From contig DASSLQ010000107.1 in the NCBI GenBank assembly GCA_035689325.1, positions 1 to 56,790 on the forward strand: a stretch of 56,790 bases of DNA. Reading direction: 5' to 3'. The stretch's first letter is position 1. Every line of letters starts with the position of its first letter. This DNA is from Burkholderiales bacterium. Lineage in GTDB: Bacteria; Pseudomonadota; Gammaproteobacteria; Burkholderiales; SG8-39. Both the position numbers and the translations under genes were made by a program. Below the pieces are notes generated by a model. The model searched no databases and was not told the origin of the DNA. It worked only from the letters and a program-made list of their open reading frames with translations. Shown here one piece after another: positions 30,861 to 45,594 of the stretch.

Positions 30861-30869
30861 GTGCCCCCC

Positions 30870-31832
30870 TTAGCGGAAGAAGAGCTTGCCGCGCACCGCA
30901 GGCGCGTTGCTGCCGTGCAGGTTGTAGTGACAGTTGACGCAGCCGCGCGCGATGAGCCGGGTGTTCTGCGTGCCGGTCCAGGAGCCGCTCGCGTCGTAGA
31001 TCGTGCCCGGATGCCGGGACGCGTCGTGGCAGTCCTGGCAGACGTTGGGCGCCTTTTCGGCAAGCAGCCGCGCGTGGTTCGCGCCATGCGGGTTATGGCA
31101 GGTGAGGCAGTTCTCCTCGACCGGCGGATGGTTCCAGACGAACGGGCCGCGCTTTTCCGCATGGCAGCTGGTGCAGAGCTGCGGGATCGATTCGGCGTTG
31201 ACCATCGCCTTGGAAAGCGCGCCGTGCGGGTTGTGGCAGTCGGTGCACGCGAGCTTGCCCTCGATGATCGGGTGATGCGACGGCTTGAGCAGCTGCGAGC
31301 GGATCTGCTTGTGGCAGGTCGTGCAGGTCTCGTACTGCAGCTGGCGCTCCGTGGTCTGGAACGGCGCGACCGTGGGGTTGGGCTTCTTCAGCGCGATCGT
31401 CGCGCCCGGCCCGGGCTTGCCGTGCAGGCTGTGGCAGTCGTTGCACGCCACGTCCTGCTTCTTGTGCGCACCCGAGTCCCAGAAGGCGAGGTGGCGGTTG
31501 CCCTGGTGGCAGGAGAGGCAGACGCCGGCCTTCTGGCCGGCGGGGATTGCCGGGTTGTTGAAGCCGACGATGCCGCCGACGCCGCGGCCGCCGCCAAGTT
31601 TGGCGTGCTCGAGCGCGGTGCCGTGGCAGGTCGTGCAGGTCGGGCCGGCGACGTTGCCGACCTGGCCGTGCTTCGTCTCGAAGTAGCTCTGGACCTGGTC
31701 GGCGTGGCAATTCTTGCAGACCTCGGACTCGGGGGCCTTGGGTTTCTCTTGTTGTCCTAGCGCAGGCGCCCCGGCCAACACGGCGACGCAAGCGAACGCG
31801 GCCGACAGAACACGCAGTAGTAAGCCCTGCAT
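30870..31832 (-). CDS. mtoA: Periplasmic decahaem cytochrome c, MtrA/MtoA/PioA/DmsE family (module 1)
   Basis: ATG at 31832 preceded by GGAGGAG. 320 aa with signal peptide and ten CXXCH motifs (CKNCH...CVNCH). Confidence 0.85.
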   Translation of the reverse strand: MQGLLLRVLSAAFACVAVLAGAPALGQQEKPKAPESEVCKNCHADQVQSYFETKHGQVGNVAGPTCTTCHGTALEHAKLGGGRGVGGIVGFNNPAIPAGQKAGVCLSCHQGNRHLAFWDSGAHKKQDVACNDCHSLHGKPGPGATIALKKPNPTVAPFQTTERQLQYETCTTCHKQIRSQLLKPSHHPIIEGKLACTDCHNPHGALSKAMVNAESIPQLCTSCHAEKRGPFVWNHPPVEENCLTCHNPHGANHARLLAEKAPNVCQDCHDASRHPGTIYDASGSWTGTQNTRLIARGCVNCHYNLHGSNAPAVRGKLFFR

Positions 31833-31905
31833 TGTTGTCTCCTCCAGTGCGGCTCGCGCATGCACGCGCCGACGAGCCATTGAACTGCGTTGGCGTCATC
31901 ATCGT

Positions 31906-31919
31906 TTGATCTGGAGCAA
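31906..31919. promoter_or_regulatory. Degenerate Crp/Fnr-like box TTGATCTGGAGCAA
   Basis: One mismatch in the right half-site. Centre is exactly 40 bp from the box at 31946. Confidence 0.3.
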
Positions 31920-31945
31920 AGCGCCTGCGGGAGAGCCGCCAAACG

Positions 31946-31959
31946 TTGACCGGCATCAA
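31946..31959. promoter_or_regulatory. Crp/Fnr-type box TTGACCGGCATCAA upstream of mtoA (module 1)
   Basis: Exact palindrome in the 193-bp gap between the module-2 porin stop and the module-1 mtoA start. Confidence 0.6.
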
Positions 31960-32025
31960 CGTCCAAGAGGGCGGGAATGACCGGCGCCGGGGCGAGCGCC
32001 GCGAATCCGAAATCTGCGAAACGTC

Positions 32026-34374
32026 TTAGAAGTTGTAGATCAAGCTCGCGTAGACGACGTTGACAGAGTAGCTCGGCGCCCGCTGGTTCGTCGGCAGCAC
32101 CGCTGTCGGCGTGAACCCGGTCTGCATGCCGTTGTAGATGAAGTCATCGCTCGTCAGGTGCTGATAGAGATAGCCGAGCTTGAATGTCGACTGCTTCGTC
32201 ACCTGATAGAGGCCGCTGATCTTGAACTGGAAGAGCTTGTTCGTGATGAGCGGCGTAGGGACGCAGGTCAGGAAGAAAGGATCGGCGCAAGTCCTTCCGC
32301 TTGCATCCGTCGTCGAATAGTTCAGGACGGTGCTGTACTCAGTCCTGGTGTACGAATAGAGTGCATCGCCGAGAAGGTCCAGCCGTCCGCCCATGAATCC
32401 GCCGTGTTTGACACCAACGCCGATGGTGCTGTCGCTGTCTTTCATGGCGTTGCTCCAAGTGGCACCGGAGGGCACGCCGATCGTGGTGGCGCCGGGAGCG
32501 GTAGGAGTGGTCGTGGGCGATCTTTGCTGGTTGGTCAGGTCGCGTATGCGCTCCTGCTGAGTCCAATACGCGGTGATCGTGCCGTTTTCGTGATACCGGT
32601 AAGTGCCGTCGGCATTCAGGGACCATGACTTGCCGCGCTGCATGCCGAAGTCGGTGCCGTAATTGTCTACGGTGAGGCGCCCGTTCAGCCCCAGAGACAG
32701 CCGGTCGGCTGCCTCCCAGTTGGCTCCGGCCTTCAGCATGTTCTGCTTGCGCGACGCTTCGAAGAACGGATTGAAGCCTCTGAACTCGCCACCGTTGATA
32801 CCGGTGATGCCCGCGGGCGTACCTACGCCAGGAAGCGCTGGCGCCACGACGGCGTTGCCGTCCAGGCCAATCATGGGGGCTCGTGCGGTCAGATCGCGGT
32901 CTGATCTGCGGTTGCTGAAGCTGTAAGACGCGTTCAGGTTAAGTCCGTCAGCGGCTCTCAGCCTATAGAGGACGCCGAGCTTGTCTTCTTTGGTGCGCGG
33001 TACGGTCACACAGTTGGTGCCCGGCGCGTAGGGTGGCGTGCCGCCGCCCGACGCGTACTGGTTGCAGAAGCGGTGCGTATCGTCGTGGTTATACGCGAGC
33101 CGCAGTTTCTGGCTCGTGCTCAGCCGATAATCTCCAGCGAGCTCAGCTTGTTCCTTCTTGTAACTGAGTGGCGCATTCGGATAGTTGGCCGTATTCCCGC
33201 CGCTGATCGCGTTGTAGTTGTAAATGTTCGAAGCGGTCTGGTTGTCGCGGTAGTCGTACTTGAACCCGCCGGACAAGATCAGGTTGCGGGTAGTCTGGTC
33301 GGTGATCTTGAGATCGGCGTGGGAGGTCTTCACGACGCCGTCCAGCGACGTGGTCGGCGCCGGCGTCACCATCACCGTGGGCACGATGTTGTCGTAGGCG
33401 TAGACCATGTCCTGCCTGTTGTAGCCATAGGAAAGACCGCCGGCCAGCTTGGTTCTCGCCGATAGCGCATAGCCTCCGGTGAAGTTGAGCTGGTGGAACT
33501 GGCTGCTCGGCGGCGTGCCCATGGTTTCGTTCACGTTCGCGCCGGCCCAGGTCGTGAATCTCACCCCGTTGTAGTTATCCTGGAAATACGAGCCGAAGTA
33601 CGACAACGTCGCGTTCGACCTGCTGCCAAGCCAATTCAGGGCCAGATTGACCGTGTCGGTGGTGTAGTTCGTGGGCATCGGCAGTATGGCCGGCCTCTCC
33701 CCGGTAGCGCCGCTGATGGCGGCGGCGCCGAATGCCATCAGTTTCGCGCCCGACTGTTCGAGATGGTTTGCTTCCAGCTTGACACTCCAGCGCGGATCAA
33801 TGATGAGGGTGCCGCTGGCCGAGGTGTTTTCCCGCTCGTTGCTGATCTTCATGGTTTGAAACTGCCCGAGCTGCGCGGCCGAGAGCGTGCGCGCATTCGC
33901 GGCGGTACCGAAGCTCGGCAGGGTGAAGCTGTTGCCGCCCATGCTGCCGGTATACGGCGTCTGGTAGCTGTCCGACGTGTAGTGCGTCAGCTGATCGAAG
34001 CCGACGCCGATGGTCCACCGGCCCTGATCGCCTACCGTGGCGGCCAGGCTACGCGAAGTCAGGCCGAGATCCGTGCCGATCAATTGCCAGCGTCTGGTGC
34101 CATTGCCGTCCGCGTAGGCGTCGCCGCCGCGGACGTCGAAGTTGCCGATCAGGTAGGCGCCAGACCTGACGAGCCCGGTGTACTCGCCGAACTTGTAGGA
34201 ATCCTTCGAAACCGTCGCCACGCCGAGCTCCACGAAGTTCGGCGGCGCTCTGAGCGAGCCGAGTTGCGTGTCCTGAGCACGGGCAGGCACGGCGGCCATC
34301 GCGATGAGCACTCCCTGTACCGCGAGCGCGATCGCGCTTGCTTTGACTTTTTCGTTACGCGTTTTCATCGCCAT
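32026..34374 (-). CDS. mtoB: MtrB/PioB/MtoB-family outer-membrane porin (module 2, larger)
   Basis: 782 aa. YKFGEYTGLVRSGAYLIGNFDVRGGD is typical of the family; ends ...SLIYNF. The start may be the second ATG at 34368, which has better SD spacing. Confidence 0.8.
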   Translation of the reverse strand: MAMKTRNEKVKASAIALAVQGVLIAMAAVPARAQDTQLGSLRAPPNFVELGVATVSKDSYKFGEYTGLVRSGAYLIGNFDVRGGDAYADGNGTRRWQLIGTDLGLTSRSLAATVGDQGRWTIGVGFDQLTHYTSDSYQTPYTGSMGGNSFTLPSFGTAANARTLSAAQLGQFQTMKISNERENTSASGTLIIDPRWSVKLEANHLEQSGAKLMAFGAAAISGATGERPAILPMPTNYTTDTVNLALNWLGSRSNATLSYFGSYFQDNYNGVRFTTWAGANVNETMGTPPSSQFHQLNFTGGYALSARTKLAGGLSYGYNRQDMVYAYDNIVPTVMVTPAPTTSLDGVVKTSHADLKITDQTTRNLILSGGFKYDYRDNQTASNIYNYNAISGGNTANYPNAPLSYKKEQAELAGDYRLSTSQKLRLAYNHDDTHRFCNQYASGGGTPPYAPGTNCVTVPRTKEDKLGVLYRLRAADGLNLNASYSFSNRRSDRDLTARAPMIGLDGNAVVAPALPGVGTPAGITGINGGEFRGFNPFFEASRKQNMLKAGANWEAADRLSLGLNGRLTVDNYGTDFGMQRGKSWSLNADGTYRYHENGTITAYWTQQERIRDLTNQQRSPTTTPTAPGATTIGVPSGATWSNAMKDSDSTIGVGVKHGGFMGGRLDLLGDALYSYTRTEYSTVLNYSTTDASGRTCADPFFLTCVPTPLITNKLFQFKISGLYQVTKQSTFKLGYLYQHLTSDDFIYNGMQTGFTPTAVLPTNQRAPSYSVNVVYASLIYNF

Positions 34375-34389
34375 CTCCGATCTCCGGGC

Positions 34390-35376
34390 CTAGCGCTGGA
34401 AGTAGCCGCCATTGGGGCTGTTCGAGCCGTGGATCACGCTGTGGCAGTTGAGGCAGGCGCGTCCCAGGGCCTGGTTGCTCGGGCTCTGGTTCGTGAGCCC
34501 CGCCTGATTGCTGGCGGCGTTACGGCCGACCGGGTTCTCGCTCGAATGCTGTCCGTCATGGCACGACTGGCACAGCCAGGGAGCGCGGGACACCAGCAGC
34601 GGCGTGAGGTTCGAGCCGTGCGGCGTATGGCAGTTGGCGCAGTTCTCCACGACCGGCTGGTGCTCGAACAGGAACGGGCCGCGCTTCTCGGCGTGGCAAG
34701 TGAAGCAAGTCTCGTTGATGGTGTTCTTCTTCACCATGGTCGGCCCGGGCGAGCCGTGGGGGTTGTGGCAGTCGGAGCACACGACCTTGCCGACCTGGAT
34801 CGGATGGGTGGAAATCTTGTAGCTGTCGGCGCGCTGCTCGCGGTGGCAAGCAAAGCAGACCTGCGTTTGGGTCTTCTTGTAGAGCACGGCGTCTGTGGCC
34901 GCATGACTCTGGTGGCAGTCGCTGCAGGACATCAGATTCACCTGGTGCGCGCTGCCCGCCCAGTGCGTACGCGCCGTTCCCCGGTGGCAGCTCAAGCAGG
35001 CTTCGCTGCGCTGCTCGACCGGCGTAGCCGCGTGCTTGCCGAACATGAGGTCCGGCTTGTCCGCGCCGGGATTGGACTGGTGCGCCACGCTCTCGCCGTG
35101 GCAGCTGGTGCAGGTCGGCGTGCGGCTGTCGCCGCGCACGCCATGCTTCGTCTTGCCGATCTCAAGAACCGGATAGGGCCAGCTCTCGTCGTGGCAGGTC
35201 GTGCACTTGGCGTCGCCGCGCAGGACCTTGTCCTTCTCCTGCGCGGCGGGCTGCTGCGCATGCGCAGGAGGAACGAGCAGCGCGTCAGCTGCGATCAGCG
35301 CCAGCAGTCCGAGCGCGAGGAAAAGAAGGCGCCGCCATGCATGGCGCGAAAATGACGCAGTACCGCCGAAGCTCAT
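34390..35376 (-). CDS. mtoA: Periplasmic decahaem cytochrome c, MtrA/MtoA family (module 2)
   Basis: 328 aa. GGAGGAG lies 5 nt before the ATG. Signal peptide and ten CXXCH motifs (CTTCH...CLNCH). Confidence 0.85.
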   Translation of the reverse strand: MSFGGTASFSRHAWRRLLFLALGLLALIAADALLVPPAHAQQPAAQEKDKVLRGDAKCTTCHDESWPYPVLEIGKTKHGVRGDSRTPTCTSCHGESVAHQSNPGADKPDLMFGKHAATPVEQRSEACLSCHRGTARTHWAGSAHQVNLMSCSDCHQSHAATDAVLYKKTQTQVCFACHREQRADSYKISTHPIQVGKVVCSDCHNPHGSPGPTMVKKNTINETCFTCHAEKRGPFLFEHQPVVENCANCHTPHGSNLTPLLVSRAPWLCQSCHDGQHSSENPVGRNAASNQAGLTNQSPSNQALGRACLNCHSVIHGSNSPNGGYFQR

Positions 35377-35452: not shown

Positions 35453-35466
35453 TTGATGTAGATCAA
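35453..35466. promoter_or_regulatory. Consensus FNR-type box TTGATGTAGATCAA in the mtoA(2) / c5 divergent region
   Basis: Perfect TTGAT-N4-ATCAA, about 83 bp from the mtoA ATG and about 78 bp from the c5 ATG. Confidence 0.7.
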
Positions 35467-35537
35467 TGCCGAAATGGCGGCGCCGGCGCGGTTTCACTAT
35501 GATTGATGCCGAGCCATGCGCCAGGGGATGCTGCGCT

Positions 35538-36164
35538 ATGCGCAAGCCGATCGTTGGTAAGACGCTGATTGCTATCGCGATGCTGAGCGCGGCGTCGGCA
35601 CTGCACGCCCAAAGCACGGGCGGGGAACGCAGCGGCAAGCAGGTCGTCGATCAGGTCTGCGCCCGCTGCCATCGCGCCGGCGTCGACGGCGCGCCGAAGA
35701 TTGGCGACAAGGAAGCCTGGGCGAAGCGCTCCTCACGCGGACTCTCCAGCCTCACGAAGAGCGCGATCAACGGCATCCGCAAGATGCCGCCGCATGGCGG
35801 CCATCCGGAGCTGAGCGATACCGAGATCAAGCGCGCCGTTACCTATATGGTGAACCGGTCTGGCGGCCACTGGGTCGAGCCGGTCGGCGCCAAGCCGGCC
35901 GCGGAACGCAGTGGCCAGGCGATCGTCAAGGCGCAGTGCGCCAAGTGCCACGCGAGCGGCAAGGGCGGCGCGCCGAAGCTCGGCGACCGTGCGGCGTGGT
36001 CCGAGCGCGTAAAGCCGGGCGTCGACGCCCTGGTGCGCTCGGCGATCAACGGTCACGGCGGCATGCCGGCGCGCGGTGGCATGGCGAATCTCACCGATGT
36101 CGAGATCCGCAACGCGGTGAACTACATGGTGACCACCAGCATCGCGCCGCGCAAAGGCGAGTAG
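35538..36164 (+). CDS. Dihaem cytochrome c, two c5-type domains
   Basis: ATG at 35538 (MRKPIVGKTLIAIAMLSAASALHA). Two repeats: CARCH..GAPKIGDKEAW..MPPHGG and CAKCH..GAPKLGDRAAW..MPARGG. Confidence 0.8.
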   Translation: MRKPIVGKTLIAIAMLSAASALHAQSTGGERSGKQVVDQVCARCHRAGVDGAPKIGDKEAWAKRSSRGLSSLTKSAINGIRKMPPHGGHPELSDTEIKRAVTYMVNRSGGHWVEPVGAKPAAERSGQAIVKAQCAKCHASGKGGAPKLGDRAAWSERVKPGVDALVRSAINGHGGMPARGGMANLTDVEIRNAVNYMVTTSIAPRKGE

Positions 36165-36179: not shown

Positions 36180-36193
36180 TTGACATGGATCAA
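36180..36193. promoter_or_regulatory. Crp/Fnr-type box TTGACATGGATCAA upstream of the CbcL-like gene
   Basis: Exact palindrome. Centre about 65 bp upstream of the ATG at 36252. Confidence 0.6.
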
Positions 36194-36251: not shown

Positions 36252-38729
36252 ATGAGGCTCCTTGCGTGCGCTGCGCTGCTCACGGCAGCCATGCCCTTGT
36301 GCACCTCCCTGCAAGACGCGCAGGCGCAGACCGGCGCCGACTCGGCGCTCGCGGAATCGAAGGGCTGCTTCAGCTGCCATGCGATCGACAAGCAGGTTGT
36401 CGGACCGGCGTTCCGCGATGTGGCGAACAAATACGGCGGCGACCAGCGCGCGGCAGCCAGGCTCGCCGACCAGCTGAAGAAAGGCACCGGCCACCCGATC
36501 AAGGTCGAAGGCACCGACGCCGAGGTCGAGGCGCTGGTGCGCTATGTGCTCGCGCAGGGCGGCGCGGCCGCGCCGCGAGCGCCCAAGGCACCTGCGAAAC
36601 CGGCTGCGGCCACCGCGCTGCTCGAAGCGAAGGGCTGCCTCGGCTGTCACGGCGTCGACAAGCCGGGGGTCGGCCCGGCATTCAAGGACGTGGCCGCGAA
36701 GTACAAGAACGAGAAGACCGCCGAGGCGACGCTGATCGCGAAGCTGCGCGAGGGAAAGGGCCATCCCGTCAAGGCCGAGGCGTCGCAAGCGGAATTGAAG
36801 ACGCTGGTGCAATTCGTGCTCGCACAGGCGGCTGCCGCCAAGCCTGCCGGCAAATCGCAGGCGGCCACGGCGGCGAGCCCGCCGCTCGACAACGCCGTGT
36901 GCCTCGGCTGCCACGGGCAGCCGGGCTTTTCGATCACCGGCGTCGACGGCGCGCCGCGTGCGCTGCACGTGACGAAGGAGCGCTTCGAGAGCAGCGTCCA
37001 CGGCAAGCGGCAATGCGTCGAATGCCATCGCAACATCACCGAGATACCGCACAAGCCCGGTACGCAGGTGCGGGTGAGCTGCATCACCTGCCACGATGAC
37101 CTGTGGAAGCAGGCGCAGCGTCAAGGCACCACGGGCGAGCACGCGCGTCTCGGCGTGGTGGTCGCGCAGATCGACCGTTACATGAAGTCGGTGCACGCGC
37201 GGCCGAGCCGCGAAGATCAGTCGCGCACCAACGCCACCTGCTACAACTGCCACGATGCGCACTACGTCTATCCGCTCGGCACGACCGAGCGCGCCGACTG
37301 GCGCCTGAGCATCCCGCAGGTCTGCGGCAAGTGTCATGCGGAGAAGCTCGACGCCTACGCCACCTCGGTGCATGGTACGGAAGTGCTGAAGCTCCGCAAC
37401 CCCGCCGCCGCCATCTGCTCCGACTGCCACACTACACACGACATCCAATCGCCCGAAGGGACTGCTACCAAGCTCGTCATCGTCAAGAACTGCGGCGGCT
37501 GCCACGTCGCGAGCTTCAAGTCCTATACCAGCACCTATCACGGCCAAGTCCATCTGCTCGGCTACACCTATACCGCGAAGTGCTTCGACTGCCACGGCAG
37601 CCACGGCATCAAGCGCGTGAGCGATCCTTCGTCCAGCGTGAACCTCGAAAACCGCCTCGCCACGTGCCGCAAGTGCCACGCCAATGCAACCGCCGGCTAC
37701 GTCAGCTTCGAGCCGCACGCGACGACGCACGACTTCCACCGCTTCCCCCAAGTGTGGCTGTCGGCCAAGTTCATGATCGGCCTGCTCGCCGGCACGTTCC
37801 TCTTCTTCTGGACCCATACGGCGCTTTGGTTCTACCGCGAGTACCACGAGCGCCAGCGCGGCGCAATGCGCACGCACGTGAGCACGGCCGAGCTGCCCGG
37901 CGTGGCGGCCGGCAAGCAGTACCAGCGCTTCGGTCCCTGGTGGCGCCTCGCGCATCTGCTCTTCGCGGTCAGCCTGATGGTCCTCACGCTCACCGGCATG
38001 ACCGTGCTCTATGCGGAATCGAGCTGGGCGCCGGTGGTCATCAAGCTGCTCGGCGGCACGCGCAGCGCAGCGATCATCCATCGCCTGGCGGCCGTGGTGT
38101 TCGCCAGCGTCTTCCTCGTCCACCTGGTGGTGGTGCTCAACCGGGTGCGCAAGTGGCGCACGCTCGAGCAGTGGTTCGGTCCGCGCTCGCTGATCCCGAG
38201 CTGGCAGGACATCAAAGACATCTTCTTCATGTTCCGCTGGTTCGTCGGCAAGGGGCCGCGCCCGTTCTTCGACCGCTGGACCTACTGGGAGAAATTCGAC
38301 TATTGGGCGCCCTTCTGGGGCGTGACGATCATCGGCGTAAGCGGGCTCATGATGTGGCTGCCCGCGCTCACCGCGTCGCTCTTGCCCGGGTGGGTGTTCA
38401 ACGTCGCGATCCTGGTGCACGGCGAGGAAGCGCTGCTCGCAGCGCTGTTCCTCTTCACGGTGCATTTCTTCAACAACCACTTCCGGCCGGACAAGTTCCC
38501 GCTCGACGTGGTGATGTTCACGGGCAGCATGCCGATCGAGGAGTTCCGCCGCGAGCATCGCCTGGAATACGAGCGGCTCGTGCGCACGGGGGAATTGCAG
38601 AAGCACTTGGTGGATGCGCCCTCGCTGCCGATGTCGCGCGGCTCGCGCATCCTCGGCTTCACGCTGATCGGCACCGGCCTCGTTCTCCTCCTGCTGGTGC
38701 TGGTCGGTTTCTTCGGGCACGCCGCGTAA
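36252..38729 (+). CDS. Fusion protein: 2 x MtoD-like monohaem c domains + nine-haem c domain + C-terminal FdnI/HydC-type cytochrome b membrane domain (CbcL-like)
   Basis: ATG at 36252 with signal peptide; 825 aa; 11 CXXCH motifs. Residues about 30-205 are two repeats collinear with the 94-aa cytochrome at 28410. Residues about 495-825 carry 4-5 TM helices with conserved His (WRLAHLLF, IIHRLAAVVFASVFLVH, ILVHGEE..FTVHFFNNH). Confidence 0.75.
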   Translation: MRLLACAALLTAAMPLCTSLQDAQAQTGADSALAESKGCFSCHAIDKQVVGPAFRDVANKYGGDQRAAARLADQLKKGTGHPIKVEGTDAEVEALVRYVLAQGGAAAPRAPKAPAKPAAATALLEAKGCLGCHGVDKPGVGPAFKDVAAKYKNEKTAEATLIAKLREGKGHPVKAEASQAELKTLVQFVLAQAAAAKPAGKSQAATAASPPLDNAVCLGCHGQPGFSITGVDGAPRALHVTKERFESSVHGKRQCVECHRNITEIPHKPGTQVRVSCITCHDDLWKQAQRQGTTGEHARLGVVVAQIDRYMKSVHARPSREDQSRTNATCYNCHDAHYVYPLGTTERADWRLSIPQVCGKCHAEKLDAYATSVHGTEVLKLRNPAAAICSDCHTTHDIQSPEGTATKLVIVKNCGGCHVASFKSYTSTYHGQVHLLGYTYTAKCFDCHGSHGIKRVSDPSSSVNLENRLATCRKCHANATAGYVSFEPHATTHDFHRFPQVWLSAKFMIGLLAGTFLFFWTHTALWFYREYHERQRGAMRTHVSTAELPGVAAGKQYQRFGPWWRLAHLLFAVSLMVLTLTGMTVLYAESSWAPVVIKLLGGTRSAAIIHRLAAVVFASVFLVHLVVVLNRVRKWRTLEQWFGPRSLIPSWQDIKDIFFMFRWFVGKGPRPFFDRWTYWEKFDYWAPFWGVTIIGVSGLMMWLPALTASLLPGWVFNVAILVHGEEALLAALFLFTVHFFNNHFRPDKFPLDVVMFTGSMPIEEFRREHRLEYERLVRTGELQKHLVDAPSLPMSRGSRILGFTLIGTGLVLLLLVLVGFFGHAA

Positions 38730-38738: not shown

Positions 38739-38752
38739 TTGACCTAAATCAA
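38739..38752. promoter_or_regulatory. Crp/Fnr-type box TTGACCTAAATCAA upstream of the tetrahaem c4-type gene
   Basis: Exact palindrome. Centre about 40 bp upstream of the ATG at 38785. Confidence 0.55.
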
Positions 38753-38784: not shown

Positions 38785-39996
38785 ATGCTCAAGGCTGCCG
38801 TGCGCGTACTCTTGCCGACGCTGCTCCTGCTATGGGCCGCATGCGCCGTGGCCCAGCCTGCGCGGCTTAAGCCCGCGGCGGATGCGGACCTGCGGGCGCT
38901 CTATGCCAACGCCGCGGACATCGCGGAAGGCAAACGCCTGGCGGAGAGCTCCTGCGCACGCTGCCATGGCGCGAACGGCATCAGCTCAACGCGCGGCATC
39001 CCGAACATCGCCGGGCAGCGTGCGGCCTATCTGCACCTGCAGCTGCGCGCCTACCGGCAGGGCGCGCGCGCCAAGGGCCCGATGGGCGGCGCGGTGGGCT
39101 TCCTGAGCGACGAGGCGCTCATCAAGGTGGCCGCCTATTTCGGCAGCCTGGAGCCGGCGAAGCCAGCGGCGGCGAAGCCGGTAGCGCAGAAGTCCGACCC
39201 GCTGCAGGCCGGCAAGGCGGCGGCCGCCGCCTGCGGCGCCTGCCACGGCGACAACGGCACGAGCAAGACGCCGGGCACGCCGAGCCTCGTCGGCTTCAAT
39301 CCGACATACTTCGTCGCGGCCATGAGCGCCTACAAGAGCGGCCAACGCAAGAACGACATGATGAAGTCCATGGCCGGCAGCCTGAACGACGCCGACCTCG
39401 CCAACGTCGCCCTCTACTATGCGCTGCAGAAACCCGCGCGTGCGCAGACGCCGGCCGCCGGCGATGCGGCAGCGGGCAAGGCGGCCGCCGGCGCCTGCAG
39501 CGGCTGCCACGGCGAAACCGGGGTCAGCGCCAGCCCGGAGACCCCGAGCCTTGCCGGCCAGGACGCCCAGTACCTGAGCGCCGCCCTGCTCGCCTACAAG
39601 GACAAGGCGCGCAAGGACGAAGCAATGCAGGGCATCGCCGCGGCGCTGGACGAGCAGACGACCAGAAACATCGCCGCGTATTACGCTGCGCAGCAGCCGC
39701 AGGCGCCGGGCGTTCGCAAGCCCCTCAGCGTCGCCGAGTGGGTCGAGCGCTGCGATCGCTGCCACGGTTCGAATGGCAACAGCACCGATGCGCTGATCCC
39801 GGCGCTCGCCGGGCAGCGCGCCGACTGGCTGGAAACGGTGCTGCAGGCATACCGCAGCGGCGCGCGCAAGAGCGCGGCGATGAGCGCCATGTCCTCGGGG
39901 CTGAGCGAGACGGACATCAAAGAACTGTCGGCGTACTACGCGCGCCAGACGCCGCGCGCGGTGCTCTATGTGGTGGTTCCGGAGGGGCAACGATGA
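38785..39996 (+). CDS. Tetrahaem cytochrome c built from four c4-type class I domains
   Basis: 403 aa with signal peptide. CARCH, CGACH, CSGCH, CDRCH, each followed by the P.L/IAGQ...YL...L.AY..G.R pattern. Confidence 0.8.
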   Translation: MLKAAVRVLLPTLLLLWAACAVAQPARLKPAADADLRALYANAADIAEGKRLAESSCARCHGANGISSTRGIPNIAGQRAAYLHLQLRAYRQGARAKGPMGGAVGFLSDEALIKVAAYFGSLEPAKPAAAKPVAQKSDPLQAGKAAAAACGACHGDNGTSKTPGTPSLVGFNPTYFVAAMSAYKSGQRKNDMMKSMAGSLNDADLANVALYYALQKPARAQTPAAGDAAAGKAAAGACSGCHGETGVSASPETPSLAGQDAQYLSAALLAYKDKARKDEAMQGIAAALDEQTTRNIAAYYAAQQPQAPGVRKPLSVAEWVERCDRCHGSNGNSTDALIPALAGQRADWLETVLQAYRSGARKSAAMSAMSSGLSETDIKELSAYYARQTPRAVLYVVVPEGQR

Positions 39997-40796
39997 GGAT
40001 CAACGAGCCTACGGTGGACGACGAGCCGCTGCACCGGCTTTTCTACCATTTCTCCGAGATGCCGAAGAGCCTTCGCGTGCTCTATACCGCGACGCTCCTC
40101 GTGCTCGGGATGGGCTACCTGTTCGCGCTGATTTATCTCTTCCATACGTACTCGGGCAAGGACGGCAATCCGGGAACGCTCTCGTATGAGGACATCGTCA
40201 TCGCCTACAGCGGCAGCGGCAAGGGCTCGCGTCTGGAGTCGGCGCTGCGCGGCCCGATGTCCACGATGCTGCCGCGCGACGAGATGACGCCGATTCTCGC
40301 GTGGCTGCAGCAAGGCGCCGGTCGCGACGCCTTCGAGAAGACGATCCGGCCAACGCTCGACAAGCGCTGCATGGCCTGCCATGACGGCAGCAACCCGCAC
40401 CTGCCCAACCTGAACGGCTTCGACAACGTGCAGAAGCTCACCGAGCGCGACACCGGCACCGGGGTCTTTACCCTGGTTCGCGTATCGCACATTCACCTCT
40501 TTGGCCTCACGTTCATCTTCTTCCTGCTGGGAACGATCTTCAGCCACGCCTACGTGCGGCCGGTGTGGTTCAAGTGCACCGTCATCGTGCTGCCTTTCGT
40601 CGCCCTGGTGATGGACGTGAGCTCCTGGTATTTCACGAAGCTGTTCCACCCCTTTGCGCTGGTGGTGATGGCCGGCGGCGGCCTGATGGGACTGTCCTTC
40701 GCCTTCATGTGGGTGGTGTCCATGTATCAGCTCTGGTGGTCGAAGCCGCCGAGCCCGGTCGTGCAAAGAGCCACCGCAACCGTTGATGTCGGCTGA
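39993..40796 (+). CDS. Unknown polytopic membrane protein with one CXXCH motif
   Basis: ATG at 39993 (ATGA overlap with the previous stop). 267 aa, about 4 TM helices, periplasmic loop with CMACHDGSNPHLPNL, and His-rich TM (VSHIHLFGLTFIFF). Confidence 0.6.
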   Translation: MRINEPTVDDEPLHRLFYHFSEMPKSLRVLYTATLLVLGMGYLFALIYLFHTYSGKDGNPGTLSYEDIVIAYSGSGKGSRLESALRGPMSTMLPRDEMTPILAWLQQGAGRDAFEKTIRPTLDKRCMACHDGSNPHLPNLNGFDNVQKLTERDTGTGVFTLVRVSHIHLFGLTFIFFLLGTIFSHAYVRPVWFKCTVIVLPFVALVMDVSSWYFTKLFHPFALVVMAGGGLMGLSFAFMWVVSMYQLWWSKPPSPVVQRATATVDVG

Positions 40797-40812
40797 TGCT
40801 GCGAGGTGTTCG

Positions 40813-41946
40813 ATGAAAAGCCTGAAGCTGGGAATCGTCGTTTCGCTGGCGCTCGCCGCCTGCTCACCGGAGCAGCCGGCCGGCAAGGCGGATGCCGCGA
40901 AGCTCGCGCCGGGCAATGCGGCCGCCGGCAAGCCGATCGCGGAGAAGGAATGCAAAGGCTGCCACGGCCTCGACGGCAAAGGCGCGGCGCCGGGCATCCC
41001 GCATCTCGCCGCGCAGAGCGAGCGCTATCTTGTCTCGGCGCTCAAGGAATACAAGGACAACAACCGCACGCACGCCGCCCTCAGGGCCATCGCCGAGGGC
41101 CTGACGGATGCCGACACGCGCAACGTGGCCGCGTATTACGCGGGCCTGCCGCCGGTGCAGCTCGCATCGCAGACCCAGCCGAAGCAGATCACGCCCTACG
41201 AGCACGGCAAGGCGCTCGCGAGCGCCTGCGCGCAATGCCACGGCCCGGACGGCAATAGCAAGACCTCAGGCACGCCGAGCCTCGCCGGACAGCAGTTGCG
41301 CTACCTGGTCGTTGCCATGGACGAGTACCTGCACAGCGAGCGCAAGGCGGCTTCGATGCACGCCGTGGTGCCGCGCCTGGGCAAGCTCGACAAGGAAGAC
41401 CTGGCCCTCTATTTCGCTTCGCAGACCCCGGTGCAGCGCGCGGCCGCGCCTTTCGGCGATGCGGCGGCGGGCGAACCGCTCACCGCGGTGTGCGGCGGAT
41501 GCCATGGGGCGCAGGGCGTGAGCGCCGACAGCGCGACGCCCACGCTCGCCGGTCAGGACGCCGCCTACCTGGTCGAAGCGATCAAGGCCTACCGCACCAC
41601 GCGCAAGCGCGAAAATATGCGTCTATACGTCACCGGTTTGAAGGAGGCGGACATCCGCAACATCGCGGCGTTCTACACGACGCAGAAATCGCTCGCATCA
41701 GAAAAAGGGGACACCGTGGCTCAGCAGGTCGCCGACAAGTGCGAACGCTGCCACGGCAGTGGCGACAATCCGGCGCTGTCGGTGCCCAAGATCCGGGGCC
41801 AGGACCGGGACTACCTGATCATGGCGCTGCGCGCCTACCGCGACGATCGGCGCGGCAGCTCGACGATGCACAAGATGAGCATCCCCTACGGCGACTCGAT
41901 CATCGAAAGCCTGGCGTCGTACTACGCGAGCCAACCGCCCAGATAG
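40813..41946 (+). CDS. Tetrahaem c4-type cytochrome lipoprotein
   Basis: ATG at 40813. MKSLKLGIVVSLALAAC lipobox. CKGCH, CAQCH, CGGCH, CERCH with c4-type repeats. Confidence 0.8.
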   Translation: MKSLKLGIVVSLALAACSPEQPAGKADAAKLAPGNAAAGKPIAEKECKGCHGLDGKGAAPGIPHLAAQSERYLVSALKEYKDNNRTHAALRAIAEGLTDADTRNVAAYYAGLPPVQLASQTQPKQITPYEHGKALASACAQCHGPDGNSKTSGTPSLAGQQLRYLVVAMDEYLHSERKAASMHAVVPRLGKLDKEDLALYFASQTPVQRAAAPFGDAAAGEPLTAVCGGCHGAQGVSADSATPTLAGQDAAYLVEAIKAYRTTRKRENMRLYVTGLKEADIRNIAAFYTTQKSLASEKGDTVAQQVADKCERCHGSGDNPALSVPKIRGQDRDYLIMALRAYRDDRRGSSTMHKMSIPYGDSIIESLASYYASQPPR

Positions 41947-42303: not shown

Positions 42304-43518
42304 CTAGGCGACGGCTTCGTCGCCGACGAGACCTTCTGCGCCCGGCTCGTGCCTCGCTGCCGCCGGTTCCGTCCACGGCGGAAAGAAGCGCACGGCAATC
42401 GATAGCAGCAAGAATGGCATGACGAGCACCGCCAATGCCGCGAGCAGTCCCTCACGCCCGAAGACCGCCGGGTGGTAGGCCAGGATCCCCTTGCCGGTCT
42501 TCGCGATCTCCTGTCCGCCGATCACCACATTCCAGCGCATCATCAGCACGGCAAGCAATACCAGCACTGCACTCGCCGTGGCGCCGGCGATCAGCGCCCT
42601 TCCGGCCGTGCCGCGCCAGACCATATAGGTGAGCGTCAGCAGCGGCACCAGCGAGCCGATGCCGAACTGCAACACGAAGAACGGCAGGAGGAGCGGCCCC
42701 TTCACGTACTCCATGATCGCCTCGATGCCCTCGCGGCCGCGATACACCAGCGCCCCGAACTCGACCCCTTCGAGCACCAGCGTGAACATGAGGAATCCCC
42801 ACAGCGCATAGACCATGCCTTTCAGGCAGTCGAGGTCGACCGCAACGCGCCGCAGGCGGCAGGAGACCACGTAAAGCAACATGACGAGCGCTGTGCCCGA
42901 GATGATCGCCGAGAACAGGAATATCGCGGGCATCAGATCCGAAGACCACCATTCGCGCGACTTGACCGAGCCGAAGACGAAGCCGACGTAGCCGTGAAGC
43001 CCGTGCGCCGCCGGAATGCCCACGACCGCCAAGGCGAAGATCCATTTGCGGTCGTAGCGCATCGCCGCTTCGGAGAGGTCATTGGAGCCGAGCGACAGCG
43101 CGCGATAAATCCATCCGAGCACGCCGTTGCGCTCCTGCGCCTGGCGCACGATATGCGGCCGGAAGACGAACCAGTTCTCGAGCATGAGCAGCGTGACGTA
43201 GAAGCTCGCCATGTAGCCGAACATGACGAAGGCGGAGGTCCAGTGCGGCGTGATCATGGCGTTGAACGCGCGCTCCGGATGGCCGAGGTGCAGCATCAGC
43301 GGGATCGGCACGACCACCATGAAGCACAGCGATGCCAGCAGGGCGAGATGCGCCGCCGGCTTGAACCGCTGCATGCCGAACACCTGGTAGAGGCTCGAGA
43401 TGGTGAATGCCCCGGCGACCAGCCCGGTGAGGTAGGGGTACACCACGATCAGCGCCGACCAGCCGATGACGCTCTCGTTCGGATAGACGTAGCCGGTGAA
43501 AGTCATCACATGATCCAT
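42304..43518 (-). CDS. NrfD/PsrC-family integral membrane quinone-interacting subunit
   Basis: ATG at 43518 (MDHVMTFTGYVYPNESVIGWSALIVVYPYLTGLVAG). 404 aa, about 8-10 TM helices. Confidence 0.8.
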   Translation of the reverse strand: MDHVMTFTGYVYPNESVIGWSALIVVYPYLTGLVAGAFTISSLYQVFGMQRFKPAAHLALLASLCFMVVVPIPLMLHLGHPERAFNAMITPHWTSAFVMFGYMASFYVTLLMLENWFVFRPHIVRQAQERNGVLGWIYRALSLGSNDLSEAAMRYDRKWIFALAVVGIPAAHGLHGYVGFVFGSVKSREWWSSDLMPAIFLFSAIISGTALVMLLYVVSCRLRRVAVDLDCLKGMVYALWGFLMFTLVLEGVEFGALVYRGREGIEAIMEYVKGPLLLPFFVLQFGIGSLVPLLTLTYMVWRGTAGRALIAGATASAVLVLLAVLMMRWNVVIGGQEIAKTGKGILAYHPAVFGREGLLAALAVLVMPFLLLSIAVRFFPPWTEPAAARHEPGAEGLVGDEAVA

Positions 43519-44351
43519 CAGCTCACATCCTTGTCGATGCCGACATAGAACCCGTTGGGCGCGTTGCCCGACTCGGGCTTCAGCACATGCGTGCGGTTCT
43601 CGCGCAGGAAGCGGCTGATCGGGCTTTGCTTGTCGGCGCGGTCGCCGAACACGCGCGCGCCGGTCGGGCAGACTTCGACGCAGGCCGGCTGCAATCCTTT
43701 GGTGATGCGGTGGTAGCACCACGTGCACTTGTCGGTGACGTGCTTGCGCTCATCGAAGAAGCGCGCGCCGTAAGGGCAGGCCTGCACGCAGTACTGGCAG
43801 CCGATGCAGTACTTGTGGTCGATGACGACCACGCCATCCTTGGTCTTGTACGTGGCGCCGGTGGGGCACACCTGCACGCAAGCCGGATTGGTGCACTGGT
43901 TGCAGAGCTTGGGTACGAAAAAGGCCTTTTCTACCTGCTCGTCCGGATAACGATTGGCGAATCGATATTCGCCTTCGGCTAAGGAAGCGGCGATGTTCAC
44001 CGGATCGTGCTGGCTGTCGATGCGCGGCCGGTCTTCGCCTTGCAGATAGACGTAGCGCTCGACCCAGGTGCGGAAATGATGTGCATCCAGCGGCACGCCG
44101 TTCTCGGTCTTGCACGCCTCGACACAGCGCAGGCAGCCGATGCACTTGGTCGCGTCGACGCCGAATGCCCAATGGTGCTGCGTCCAGTCGTAGCCCGGAA
44201 TGGGCGAGTCGCTGCTCGCCGCTTCGGCCTCGCGCAGCGCCGCGTTGCTCGCGAGCGCGGCGCCCGCGCCCGCGGCCGCGCCGCCCAGCAACCGTAGAAA
44301 GCGCCGCCGCGCGGCCCTTGCCTGATCGGTGCTGCGGGTCAGCCCGTTCAT
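43518..44351 (-). CDS. Tat-exported 4x[Fe-S] ferredoxin subunit (NrfC/PsrB/HybA-like)
   Basis: ATG at 44351. Twin-arginine motif ARRRFLRLLGG. Cys clusters CIGCLRCVEAC, CNQCTNPACVQVCP, CIGCQYCVQACP, CTWCYHR...CVEVCP. Confidence 0.85.
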   Translation of the reverse strand: MNGLTRSTDQARAARRRFLRLLGGAAAGAGAALASNAALREAEAASSDSPIPGYDWTQHHWAFGVDATKCIGCLRCVEACKTENGVPLDAHHFRTWVERYVYLQGEDRPRIDSQHDPVNIAASLAEGEYRFANRYPDEQVEKAFFVPKLCNQCTNPACVQVCPTGATYKTKDGVVVIDHKYCIGCQYCVQACPYGARFFDERKHVTDKCTWCYHRITKGLQPACVEVCPTGARVFGDRADKQSPISRFLRENRTHVLKPESGNAPNGFYVGIDKDVS

Positions 44352-44361
44352 GTGCGTGGTC

Positions 44362-45375
44362 TCAATTGGCGCTCGCGTAATGCTCCGCCAAGGCATCCAT
44401 CTCGGCGTCGCTCAGTCCGCCGGCCACGCCGGCCATCAACTCATTCTTGCGAGCACCTGTCTTGTAGGCCTTCAGCGCGCTCACGAGGTATTGCTTCGAC
44501 TGTCCGGCGAGATTGGGCCACGCTGGGTTGGCGCTGATGCCCGCGGCGCCGTGGCACGGCACGCACGCGGCGACGTTCGCCTGGCTTGCGGCGCGTTTGG
44601 CTTCGCTGCGCGGCCGCGCCAAGCGAGCGTAGTAACCGGCGATCTTGCTGATGTCGCCATCGCCCAGCGCTTTGGCGGTTGCGGACATCATGGCGTTGTC
44701 GCGAGCGCCCGTCTTATAGGCCTTGAGCGCGTCGCTGAGGTAAGTGCTTTGCTGCCCGGCGAGATTCGGCCATGCTGGATTGGCGCTTATCCCGTTGGCG
44801 CCGTGACAACCCGAGCAGCTTGCGACCTTGCCCGCCGTCGCGTCAGTGGATCGGCCCGCGGGCGCCGCGGCGGTGCGTATCATTTTCGGCGAATGGGGGT
44901 TGTGGCAGCTCGTGCATTGCTGCGTGCCGGCATGCGTGGCAAGCACGATCTGTGGCTGCGCGGCCGGCCGGCCCGCCGTCTTTTCGTGGCACAGGGAACA
45001 GAGCTTGCGCGAATCGGCGGGAACGGCAAGCTTGCCGCTCGCCGGATGGTCGACACCGGTGCTCACGTGCTGAAAGAGCCCGCCTGCATCGCGTCCGCCC
45101 GCCGCCCCGTGGCAGACCTCGCACTGCACGGCCTTGCCCCGCTCGGTAGCGTGATGCACGCCTTTCGACCACTCCGCAAAGCGCTCGGCATGGCAATCGC
45201 GGCAATACTCCGAGCCCGTGAACTTCGGCTTGTCGGCGGCGATCTCCGCCACCGACGCGCCTCGATAGTGCCCGTAGAGGTAGAACGAATCGGCGGTAAA
45301 GAAGCGCTTCGCCGCATACGCCGCTACTCCGGCGGCAACCATGAGTGCAACGAGCCGAGTGATGTGTCTTGGCAC
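44362..45375 (-). CDS. Membrane-anchored hexahaem cytochrome c (tetrahaem domain + two c4-type domains)
   Basis: 337 aa with N-terminal TM helix. CRDCH, CEVCH, CSLCH, CTSCH, then a duplicated GISANPAWPNLAGQ..YL..ALKAYKTGAR domain with CSGCH and CVPCH. Confidence 0.8.
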   Translation of the reverse strand: MPRHITRLVALMVAAGVAAYAAKRFFTADSFYLYGHYRGASVAEIAADKPKFTGSEYCRDCHAERFAEWSKGVHHATERGKAVQCEVCHGAAGGRDAGGLFQHVSTGVDHPASGKLAVPADSRKLCSLCHEKTAGRPAAQPQIVLATHAGTQQCTSCHNPHSPKMIRTAAAPAGRSTDATAGKVASCSGCHGANGISANPAWPNLAGQQSTYLSDALKAYKTGARDNAMMSATAKALGDGDISKIAGYYARLARPRSEAKRAASQANVAACVPCHGAAGISANPAWPNLAGQSKQYLVSALKAYKTGARKNELMAGVAGGLSDAEMDALAEHYASAN

Positions 45376-45428: not shown

Positions 45429-45442
45429 TTGATGCACATCAA
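45429..45442. promoter_or_regulatory. Consensus FNR-type box TTGATGCACATCAA upstream of the hexahaem-NrfCD operon
   Basis: Perfect TTGAT-N4-ATCAA. Centre about 60 bp upstream of the ATG at 45375. Confidence 0.7.
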
Positions 45443-45580: not shown

Positions 45581-45594
45581 TTGACTCAGATCAA
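45581..45594. promoter_or_regulatory. Crp/Fnr-type box TTGACTCAGATCAA
   Basis: Exact palindrome. Centre is exactly 40 bp from the next box (45621). Confidence 0.6.

Follow-up and report, generated by a model that had tools for sequence, protein, structure and literature searches.

How electrons pass between the quinone pool and the porin–cytochrome conduits of the outer membrane is the least understood part of extracellular electron transfer beyond Shewanella and Geobacter. A stretch of 56,790 nucleotides from a Burkholderiales bacterium (GenBank assembly GCA_035689325.1, contig DASSLQ010000107.1; the whole stretch is hereafter called the window) raises this question through one gene. At positions 36252–38729 of the plus strand lies an mtoC/mtrH-type gene for a protein of 825 amino acids (aa), in which two small class-I cytochrome c domains, a nine-haem cytochrome c domain and a predicted dihaem cytochrome b follow one another in a single chain. 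What kind of enzyme is this, what are the small cytochromes at its N-terminus, and in which direction would it move electrons? We report here that its sequence places the protein in the MtoC/MtrH branch of the CbcL/MtrH/MtoC family, and that its N-terminal domains are fused copies of a cytochrome that is encoded separately elsewhere in the same island.

The CbcL, MtrH and MtoC proteins have been described as inner-membrane quinol oxidases or quinone reductases with nine CXXCH motifs, six transmembrane (TM) helices and a dihaem cytochrome b resembling HydC and FdnI, Geobacter CbcL being about 35% identical to the betaproteobacterial MtoC and MtrH proteins (Zhong & Shi 2018, PMC6295460). The latter two names go back to Shi et al. 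2012 and Zhong & Shi 2018, and mtoC was found together with mtoA, mtoB and mtoD in Gallionella ES-2 and Dechloromonas RCB (PMC6295460; He et al. 2017 likewise). The nomenclature has diverged, in that ‘MtoC’ denotes the inner-membrane nonahaem/cytochrome b protein in some papers (Shi 2012, Zhong 2018, Baker 2022) but an MtrC-like outer-membrane cytochrome in another (Hoover 2023), and ‘MtrH’ has also been used for a clade of the Shewanella MtrC family (Baker 2022). The inner-membrane protein is meant throughout the present text.

Results

Architecture of the 825-aa protein

The open reading frame (ORF) extends on the plus strand from the ATG at 36252 to the stop codon at 38727–38729, and the G+C content at its third codon positions (GC3) is 0.88, uniform along the whole frame. 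Its product contains 11 CXXCH motifs, two near the N-terminus (aa 39 and 129) and nine further on (aa 217, 255, 277, 330, 358, 389, 414, 444 and 472). Pfam finds class-I cytochrome c at aa 33–100 and 122–189, multihaem families at about aa 250–430, and Ni_hydr_CYTB at aa 559–739, the last below its gathering score. An initial annotation of the locus had proposed a single polypeptide in which two small cytochrome repeats, separated by Ala/Pro/Lys linkers, precede nine further haem motifs and an FdnI/HydC-like dihaem b anchor. ORF, motif count and Pfam agree with this order, and the NCBIfam matches and the 1224 homologues returned by a whole-protein search complete the assignment of the gene.

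The chain opens with a Sec signal peptide (36252–36329, aa 1–26, ending in DAQAQ), recognized from the hydrophobic stretch of aa 3–21 and, by eye, from an AQA motif; c-type haem domains need export. Class-I domain 1 follows (36330–36560, aa 27–103) with the haem site C39/C42/H43 and the predicted distal ligand H81, then an Ala/Pro/Lys linker (36561–36602, aa 104–117), class-I domain 2 (36603–36827, aa 118–192) with the haem site C129/C132/H133 and the predicted distal ligand H171, and a second, Ala-rich linker (36828–36890, aa 193–213). The remainder consists of the nine-haem domain (36891–37721, aa 214–490), delimited by CXXCH conservation and the Pfam multihaem families, and the membrane domain (37722–38726, aa 491–825), all on the plus strand. 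The linkers, LAQGGAAAPRAPKAPAKPAAA and LAQAAAAKPAGKSQAATAASPPLDNAV, are evident from their composition, and the AlphaFold (AF2) model drops there to a predicted local distance difference test (pLDDT) score below 50, at aa 104–115 and 197–208. A longer frame starting from TTG 36180 was discarded as unlikely; that codon falls within a box of FNR type, described below.

Placement in the MtoC/MtrH branch

The family is very large. Besides the 1224 homologues, an exhaustive search of representatives gave 790 clusters at E ≤ 1e-30, and at least 586 family loci are present in GTDB species-representative genomes of Beta-, Gamma- and Alphaproteobacteria. Counted from the first of the nine, the CXXCH motifs of the window protein begin at 0, 38, 60, 113, 141, 172, 197, 227 and 255, compared with 0, 37, 60, 113, 144, 175, 200, 230 and 258 in Galf_2006 and 0, 23, 48, 71, 95, 124, 152, 195 and 223 in CbcL (Zhong & Shi 2018). 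The spacing fits Galf_2006 and Daro_1404, not GSU0274, and on this ground the protein is therefore assigned to the MtoC/MtrH branch.

The tie to the named members (Galf_2006, Rfer_4073 and GSU0274) is indirect, through entries of a published table and through Gallionella and Rhodoferax homologues. One homologue (P0101), 69% identical to the window protein, has the source name of the metagenome-assembled genome (MAG) and the length (637 aa) of OFW44602.1 (Table S2 of Zhong & Shi 2018); another, at locus L006 and from the MAG that holds the Table S2 entry OGA15362.1, is 64–66% identical. Over the core, identity to the homologues of Gallionella and Rhodoferax, from MAGs and isolates, is 53–61%. 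The ‘extended CbcL architecture’ of the initial annotation was right as to the kinship with CbcL, but the protein belongs to the MtoC/MtrH branch and is not merely an extended CbcL. Its further suggestion, that the protein takes the place of the CymA-type partner of known Mto clusters, is not new, having been published for Gallionella ES-2 and Dechloromonas RCB.

The nine-haem domain and the cytochrome b anchor

All nine CXXCH motifs of the aa 214–490 domain are invariant among 61 aligned homologues. Searches of the PDB by sequence gave nothing useful for the nine-haem and membrane part together (best E 0.035, OmcA) and zero matches for the cytochrome b core alone, and no PDB structure was matched to the nine-haem domain by Foldseek.

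In the AF2 model (mean pLDDT 72, mostly 80–90 in the membrane domain) six TM helices span aa 499–535, 562–586, 603–633, 678–702, 713–743 and 792–824, in agreement with hydropathy and the positive-inside rule. They comprise a linker helix, a four-helix FdnI-like core and a C-terminal helix. Four to five helices with His placements like those of FdnI and HydC had been expected; the His placement is borne out, whereas the number of helices is six. The Lys plus Arg counts of the successive loops (4 / 1 / 8 / 0 / 8) put the c-type domains and the C-terminus in the periplasm.

Four histidines of the membrane domain, H568, H610, H723 and H738, are invariant in the same 61 homologues. In an hhalign comparison with Escherichia coli FdnI (taken from NC_000913) they pair with H18, H57, H155 and H169, which are the haem-b ligands in 1KQF; the pairing needs one residue of slack, the two histidines of the last core helix being 15 residues apart here and 14 in FdnI. 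FdnI (1kqf_C) is also the best PDB fold match of the AF2 model, with a target-normalized TM-score (TMt) of 0.74; such scores were used because the query was the whole 825-aa model and the Foldseek E-values are weak (best 4.7e-3). TIGR01583 scores 23 bits on the window protein, compared with a cutoff of 115.85, and PF01292 is precomputed on many of the homologues. A relation to the FdnI-type dihaem cytochromes b is supported at the level of the modelled fold and the aligned ligands. By the topology derived from the helices and loop charges, H568 and H738 are predicted to hold the haem b on the cytoplasmic side and H610 and H723 that on the periplasmic side. An invariant motif, FFNNHFRPDKFP, occupies the cytoplasmic end of TM5, and by analogy the quinone site is probably beside it, near the cytoplasmic haem.

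The N-terminal domains belong to a short-loop group of class-I cytochromes

A free-standing class-I cytochrome of 94 aa (28410–28694, minus strand; 1255 homologues) occupies the MtoD position of the mto operon in the window. Its identity to domain 1 of the 825-aa protein is 47% and to domain 2 63%; between the two domains the figure is 51%. The initial annotation had called them gap-free repeats of this cytochrome; the similarity holds, and the alignments are indeed ungapped through the conserved G-x-G-H but contain one 1-residue indel beyond it.

As to fold, the N-terminal domains match c551/c552 and MtoD. In phmmer searches of the PDB, c551 is found at E 8e-13 and MtoD (4xxl) at E 3e-9; by Foldseek, 4xxl superimposes with a TMt of 0.71 and a root-mean-square deviation of 2.2 Å, and c551/c552 structures with TMt 0.75–0.81. 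The fused domains are 43–46% identical to c551 of Pseudomonas aeruginosa and 33–38% to MtoD. Scores on the NCBIfam c551/c550 models (19–24 bits) are far under the cutoffs of 118–125.

The 4XXL sequence, obtained by a query with Gallionella MtoD, was aligned with c551, the window domains and the free homologues, and two groups were apparent. A long loop, GEKAKFPDGHEEEH, characterizes the canonical MtoD proteins of Sideroxydans, Gallionella and Ramlibacter. The short-loop group, which comprises the two window domains, the 94-aa cytochrome and the free homologues of loci L001–L003, ends in G-x-G-H and lacks 10 residues of the extended loop that precedes the distal His in 4XXL and in the Gallionella and Ramlibacter proteins. 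The Pro-rich Met loop of c551 (WGPIPMPP) is likewise deleted from the short-loop domains, and they have no conserved Met. Their His at +38 from the proximal His shares an alignment column with MtoD His95 and c551 Met61, the distal ligands of those proteins (PMC4412085). This His is found in 115/115 fused domains, each time before a Pro, and in 120/120 free homologues, in which it is followed by Pro (60), Met (38), Leu (20), Gln or Val; the position after that is Val, Ile or Met in fused and free sequences, and a neighbouring Met is not conserved.

Bis-His ligation of the haems served by H81 and H171 is on these grounds the parsimonious prediction. The initial annotation had proposed it by reference to MtoD, and the His does stand, without exception, at the usual distal Met position; the ligation itself is still predicted. 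The fused domains are, by the alignment, a short-loop subgroup of the c551/MtoD fold and not close orthologues of MtoD. What stood of the earlier ‘MtoD-type’ designation is the fold, the His in the distal column and the linkage to mtoA and mtoB (the 94-aa copy lies 3′ of mtoB in the operon, and mtoA is 0.9 kb away from the fused copies; locus L081 shows the same linkage); close orthology was given up, with the 10-residue loop gone and c551 nearer in sequence. The label ‘MtoD-like’ seems fair for gene context and predicted ligand, not for orthology. Canonical long-loop mtoD genes adjoin MtoC homologues in Gallionella and Ramlibacter loci.

Fused in some loci, separate in others

Fusion was counted in the best 120 of the 1224 homologues, class-I domains being recognized as CXXCH motifs before the nine-haem block. 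Nine motifs are present in 17 of these proteins, ten in 89, eleven in 13 and fourteen in one; that is, one or two domains are fused in 102/120 of the nearest database proteins, and homologues with and without the N-terminal repeats both exist (102 vs 17). The 11-haem architecture is found in 13 independent database clusters (JGI, ENA and NCBI) and the 10-haem version in 89. Representatives at 50% identity fold the fused variants into nine-haem clusters and are unusable for fusion frequency. Gene context was surveyed in the best 80 of the at least 586 loci, with 10 kb flanks, and in two additional loci (L081 and L082). Among the best 80 species-representative genomes a fused domain occurs only at L001–L003, one each, and none has two. 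L081, from a separately assembled Burkholderiales MAG, has a two-domain orthologue within a syntenic island.

Elsewhere the small cytochrome is a neighbour. A separate gene for it lies directly upstream of the mtoC homologue at L057, L063, L064, L066, L069, L075 and L080, and directly downstream at L001, L002, L049, L059–L061, L069, L071 and L073. That it is fused in some loci and a separate neighbour in others argues, in the manner of a Rosetta-stone comparison, that the short-loop small cytochrome is the direct redox partner of MtoC.

The core of the window protein is closest (72–79%) to one-domain proteins, the single domain of which matches domain 2 of the window (64–68%), and the two domains within one protein are 47–78% identical across homologues. 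These values suggest repeated duplication, loss or conversion of class-I domains, and we read the sequence history as one of recurrent fusion and tandem duplication of the partner gene. No N-terminal class-I addition occurs among the 138 proteins tabulated by Zhong & Shi 2018, and no published description of a fused MtoC was found in the literature searched. The fusion is real and common in metagenomes; it is a modest architectural variant of a described large family, not a new system.

A different fusion is present at L082 (10001–13291; P0005, 1096 aa), where a one-domain MtoC carries a tetrahaem c4 cytochrome at its C-terminus and no mtoB is nearby. The arrangement fits both a chain end in the periplasm beyond TM6 and a role of c4 as another partner.

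Gene neighbourhood

The gene stands in an island of divergently oriented gene runs. On the minus strand an operon-like run reads mtoA, mtoB, mtoA, mtoB, the 94-aa cytochrome, rquA, frdA, frdB, frdC and frdD; on the plus strand the order is dihaem cytochrome c, mtoC, tetrahaem c4, a membrane monohaem protein and a second tetrahaem cytochrome c. The linkage of mtoC to mtoA and mtoB, as initially annotated, was recovered in the form of two divergently encoded mtoAB pairs that adjoin it, in tandem at 28710–35376 (minus strand). Copy a consists of an mtoA/mtrA-type decahaem cytochrome gene (34390–35376; 10 CXXCH, TIGR03508 275 bits, above the cutoff of 192) and an mtoB/mtrB-type porin gene (32026–34374; PF11854 E 5e-115, TIGR03509 433 bits). 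Copy b has an mtoA-type decahaem gene (30870–31880; 10 CXXCH, TIGR03508 230 bits) and a more divergent mtoB-type porin gene (28710–30860; PF11854 E 1e-71, TIGR03509 204.9 bits, below the cutoff of 240). No gene for an MtrC-type extracellular decahaem cytochrome was seen among the annotated ORFs of the window, where no systematic search for one was made. Across the surveyed loci, mtoA or mtoB lies within 10 kb of the mtoC homologue in about 25/80.

The last cytochrome-linked gene of the mto operon is rquA, for rhodoquinone biosynthesis (27605–28363, minus strand; NF038261 292.6 bits, cutoff 175), and next to it is frdABCD for an E. coli-type quinol:fumarate reductase (24407–27604, minus strand; NF006686 981 bits, NF009051 380 bits, FrdC and FrdD). 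An rquA homologue lies within 10 kb of the MtoC homologue in 13/80 loci and is directly adjacent to it in Rhodoferax lacus (L053). Seven were scored on the RquA model, five from the 13 loci and those of L081 and L082, and all reached 280–315 bits against the cutoff of 175 (L053:12045–12725, L047:5789–6481, L062:15340–16038, L080:18792–19460, L027:214–873, L081:3446–4141 and L082:17499–18218). In the literature, rquA is called ‘very sparse’ in Pseudomonadota, and no paper linking rhodoquinone or rquA to Mtr, Mto or MtoC was found in the literature searched. L081 reproduces nearly the entire island, rquA–frdABCD included.

Further out on the frd side are genes for a DctP/DctM C4-dicarboxylate transporter of the tripartite ATP-independent periplasmic (TRAP) type (17678–21025, minus strand) and a malic enzyme (21055–22686, plus strand). 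With frdABCD they flank the cytochrome island and, judged by their annotation, would form a fumarate-respiration module. The frd–rquA–malic enzyme arrangement recurs at L081 and L082. The rest of the window also encodes FeoB, citrate synthase and 2-oxoacid:ferredoxin oxidoreductases.

The first gene of the plus-strand operon encodes a dihaem class-I cytochrome c (35538–36164). Its start is probably the ATG at 35538, which gives a protein of 208 aa with a signal peptide (MRKPIVGKTL...); this was preferred to the ATG at 35466 (ORF 35466–36164), which overlaps a perfect FNR box. Downstream of mtoC, Pfam and NCBIfam identify a tetrahaem c4/PdsA-like cytochrome (38785–39996, plus strand), a likely periplasmic partner and the type of protein fused to MtoC in P0005. 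The 267-aa membrane protein that follows (39993–40796, plus strand; one CXXCH) has no real Pfam or NCBIfam family, the only Pfam match, S_100, being borderline and likely spurious; its L081 counterpart (265 aa, same position) matches PF27139 Aq_1264_TM, and dozens of loci have a homologue at 52–77% identity (tblastn), in every case adjoining the gene for tetrahaem c4. The operon closes with the second tetrahaem class-I cytochrome c (40783–41946, plus strand), identified by profile searches and CXXCH count. Convergent to it lies a trio resembling alternative complex III (ACIII), made up of a hexahaem membrane-anchored cytochrome (4+2 haems), an NrfC/DsrO-like 4Fe-4S protein and an NrfD-like subunit (42304–45375, minus strand); it is kept beside MtoC homologues in many loci. 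Beyond the trio is the gene of a Crp/Fnr-family regulator (45621–46400).

FNR-type boxes

A search of the window for the pattern TTGAT-N4-ATCAA gave 11 matches with at most one mismatch, where 0.2 were expected (35453–35466, 36180–36193, 38739–38752, 31906–31919, 31946–31959, 45429–45442, 45581–45594, 46397–46410, 50026–50039, 6269–6282 and 14415–14428). Most are intergenic, upstream of the cytochrome operons and of the Crp/Fnr-family regulator gene. The box before mtoC, TTGACATGGATCAA (36180–36193, plus strand; FNR/Anr type), ends 59 bp upstream of the ATG, and a perfect one (35453–35466, plus strand) lies between mtoA and the divergently oriented gene of the dihaem cytochrome. Others precede c4 (38739), the second mtoA (31906 and 31946) and the regulator gene (45429, perfect; 45581). 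Low-oxygen induction of the whole island through these sites is predicted.

Discussion

A probable quinone-linked oxidoreductase with tethered cytochromes

The domain anatomy, the family to which the protein belongs, the conserved ligand residues and the synteny are shown here; haem ligation, quinone type, partners and direction of electron flow are inferred. Taken as a whole, we have good confidence in the explanation that the protein is an inner-membrane quinol/quinone:cytochrome c oxidoreductase of the MtoC/MtrH branch with tethered small cytochromes. The four-helix FdnI-like core would hold two b haems and trade electrons with the quinone pool at the cytoplasmic side; the electrons would traverse the membrane through the two b haems and enter a periplasmic wire of nine c haems. 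At the tip of this wire, two predicted bis-His class-I monohaem domains would sit on flexible Ala/Pro/Lys linkers, as presumed fused copies of the short-loop cytochrome that is otherwise encoded beside mtoC and mtoAB. They may act as tethered shuttles between MtoC and its periplasmic partners, for which the two MtoAB conduits, the free 94-aa cytochrome and the c4-type tetrahaem cytochromes are candidates. The initial annotation had spoken of a ‘hard-wired path’ from quinone through shuttle to MtoA; flexible linkers suit a tethered mobile shuttle equally well, and the heads might reach MtoA directly or by way of the free 94-aa cytochrome and the c4 proteins.

The enzyme type is regarded as reversible. 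FNR-type sites, rquA and frdABCD point to a low-oxygen programme and to a low-potential quinol in need of sinks, and the direction of export is therefore favoured; we lean, with modest confidence, towards oxidation of rhodoquinol and export of the electrons to extracellular acceptors. With a quinone site on the cytoplasmic side, quinol oxidation would send electrons outward and release protons inside, so that proton-motive force would be dissipated, and the reverse reaction would be a redox loop that generates it.

Alternative explanations

Could the long frame itself be an artefact, an assembly or frameshift error that merged small-cytochrome genes with mtoC? The small cytochrome is an ORF of its own immediately 5′ of mtoC in the loci named above for an upstream gene (L057 to L080), and a single-base error could thus generate such a fusion. 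However, the frame is unbroken with GC3 at 0.88 throughout, the domains are joined through typical Ala/Pro linkers without internal signal peptides, the 13 two-domain and 89 one-domain homologues stem from different projects, and the two-domain gene recurs in the separately assembled L081 island; uniform base composition, independent homologues and this island together rule the artefact out, and we attach next to no probability to it. Granted that the fusion is genuine, its N-terminal domains might be ordinary His/Met cytochromes c551/c552, with oxidases or nitrite reductases as docking partners, as for Pseudomonas c551, instead of bis-His shuttles. The higher identity to c551, the PDB E-values, the weak NCBIfam c550/c551 matches and the Met close to the His in some homologues (HPM, GHM) all speak for this; against it, the WGPIPMPP loop is deleted, the His at +38 is aligned to the distal-ligand column and present in 235/235 sequences with no conserved flanking Met, and the genes adjoin mtoAB, which is the place of mtoD in described clusters. 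We regard ordinary c551-type domains as improbable.

Run in the opposite direction, the same protein would be the inner-membrane end of electron uptake from Fe(II) or reduced humics, the electrons passing from MtoAB through the small cytochromes and the nine-haem wire to a quinone reduced at the cytoplasmic side, and proton-motive force being made as in the redox loop of formate dehydrogenase-N (FDH-N). FdnI, the structural template, runs in the quinone-reducing direction. MtoC was defined in the Fe(II) oxidizers Gallionella ES-2 and Dechloromonas RCB, the family has been proposed to be bidirectional, and close homologues stand beside mtoD–mtoA–mtoB in Gallionella MAGs (L071 and L073). A hexahaem/FeS/NrfD trio of ACIII type, termed a ‘novel membrane-bound redox complex’, is reported to be up-regulated during nitrate-dependent Fe(II) oxidation in Ferrigenium straubiae (2026 preprint), and matches the trio at 42304–45375 in subunit composition, the property on which the two were compared. 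The naming of MtoC for Fe(II) oxidizers and the Ferrigenium trio favour inward flow. Set against uptake is the sharing of the mtoAB operon by rquA and frdABCD, with the low-potential quinol pool in need of sinks to which they point; reduction of rhodoquinone (potential about −63 mV in the literature) by donors at the level of Fe(II) through a charge-separating loop would be thermodynamically hard, and the TRAP transporter, malic enzyme and 2-oxoacid:ferredoxin oxidoreductases have a heterotrophic, anaerobic flavour. Uptake appears to us possible but rather unlikely. We judge about equally doubtful a general (rhodo)quinol:cytochrome c hub, which would feed a periplasmic network (c4 tetrahaems, dihaem c, the Aq_1264_TM-like protein and the ACIII-like trio) and several terminal reductases or oxidases, with MtoAB as one optional outlet. 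A block of mtoC, tetrahaem c4, Aq_1264_TM-like protein and second tetrahaem c, with or without the hexahaem/FeS/NrfD genes, is conserved in many beta-, gamma- and alphaproteobacterial loci and occurs without mtoAB inside 10 kb at, for example, L001, L002, L012, L013, L019 and L029; at L082, c4 is joined to the periplasmic C-terminus of MtoC (P0005) with no mtoB nearby. Yet in the window and at L081 mtoAB is directly adjacent and shares the intergenic region with the FNR box, mtoA or mtoB was within reach in about 25 of the 80 loci, and, as the flanks extend only 10 kb, the absence of mtoAB is weak evidence.

Several further points weigh against export through MtoAB by a bis-His-tipped dihaem b enzyme, in addition to those that favour inward flow. 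The AF2 model that was obtained is of moderate quality and haem-free, with domain 1 badly modelled; the hhalign match to FdnI has E 2e-4 and a probability of 44% only, from a single-sequence template; and for Ni_hydr_CYTB (PF01292) the 26.7 bits obtained (E 5.5e-6) fall just short of the gathering score, 30.1. A Met stands two residues past the His in some fused domains (HPM), the free 94-aa protein has GHM, and His/Met ligation may occur in individual proteins. Many homologous loci are without mtoAB inside 10 kb, and the enzyme need not serve extracellular electron transfer exclusively. We know of no biochemical characterization of any MtoC/MtrH protein. The quinol oxidase role of CbcL is itself termed ‘proposed’ (PMC6295460).

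Implications

Taken as a gene alone, this one belongs to a family that is very large and already described, its architecture is common in metagenomes, and the side findings (rquA and frdABCD in the mto operon, the recurrence of rquA and the FNR-type boxes) may outweigh the fusion. Of most use, in our view, are the redox partner deduced from fusion and fission, a short-loop subgroup with predicted bis-His ligation, and an apparently unreported association of rquA, MtoC and FNR-type sites. The fused variants nominate the short-loop class-I cytochrome as the direct redox partner of the uncharacterized MtoC/MtrH proteins, and a polypeptide that would unite the quinone site, the transmembrane b haems, the periplasmic wire and the shuttle lends itself to structural and electrochemical work.

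Recurrent linkage to rquA and frdABCD and the density of FNR-type sites also suggest a testable hypothesis about the quinone behind anaerobic electron export in Betaproteobacteria without menaquinone. Its general form, which we offer tentatively, is that MtoC/MtrH-type enzymes are rhodoquinol-linked, and that in ubiquinone-only Beta- and Gammaproteobacteria an FNR-induced island of RquA, fumarate reductase and MtoC with tethered bis-His cytochromes feeds MtoAB. If true, rhodoquinone would play here the role that menaquinone has for CymA in Shewanella and CbcL in Geobacter, and the gene fusion would mark the short-loop cytochrome as an obligate partner of MtoC.

Comparison with known systems

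The closest relatives are MtoC (Galf_2006, Daro_1404) and MtrH of Rhodoferax ferrireducens (Rfer_4073), with which the window protein shares the nine-haem spacing, the six TM helices and the b-haem histidines, as well as a gene position next to mtoA, mtoB and a small class-I cytochrome. Unlike the named members, which have 655–673 aa, nine haems and no N-terminal class-I domains, it has 825 aa and 11 c-type haems. Set beside CbcL of Geobacter sulfurreducens (GSU0274) from published features, it has in common the nine CXXCH motifs, the HydC/FdnI-like dihaem b and the six TM helices, whereas the spacing of the haem motifs in CbcL is different and class-I domains are absent from it. CbcL, proposed to oxidize quinol for extracellular electron transfer, belongs to menaquinone-containing Desulfuromonadia and is not linked to mtrAB-type conduits.

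MtoD of Sideroxydans lithotrophicus (Slit_2498, 4XXL) resembles the N-terminal domains in its class-I fold, single CXXCH, distal-column His and location beside mtoAB. It differs in that identity is 33–38%, in that the window domains lack its KAKFPDGHEE loop, and in that MtoD is free and the window domains are fused to MtoC; this 10-residue loop builds a beta-loop that exposes the haem in MtoD. FdnI, the gamma subunit of E. coli FDH-N (1KQF chain C), shares the four-helix dihaem b bundle and the four aligned ligands, but identity is 16–17% and PF01292 stays below its gathering cutoff. Two TM helices are extra relative to FdnI: one N-terminal to the bundle connects it with the c-type domain, and one at the C-terminal end takes the chain back to the periplasm.

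Respiratory enzymes with a fused cytochrome c domain for electron entry are familiar from subunit II of caa3 oxidase, CcoP of cbb3 oxidase and actinobacterial QcrC. As in these, a soluble shuttle would here be covalently tethered to its membrane partner, with less diffusion. They belong to other enzyme families, however, and in the protein described here the tethered domain is present twice, at the distal tip of a nine-haem wire.

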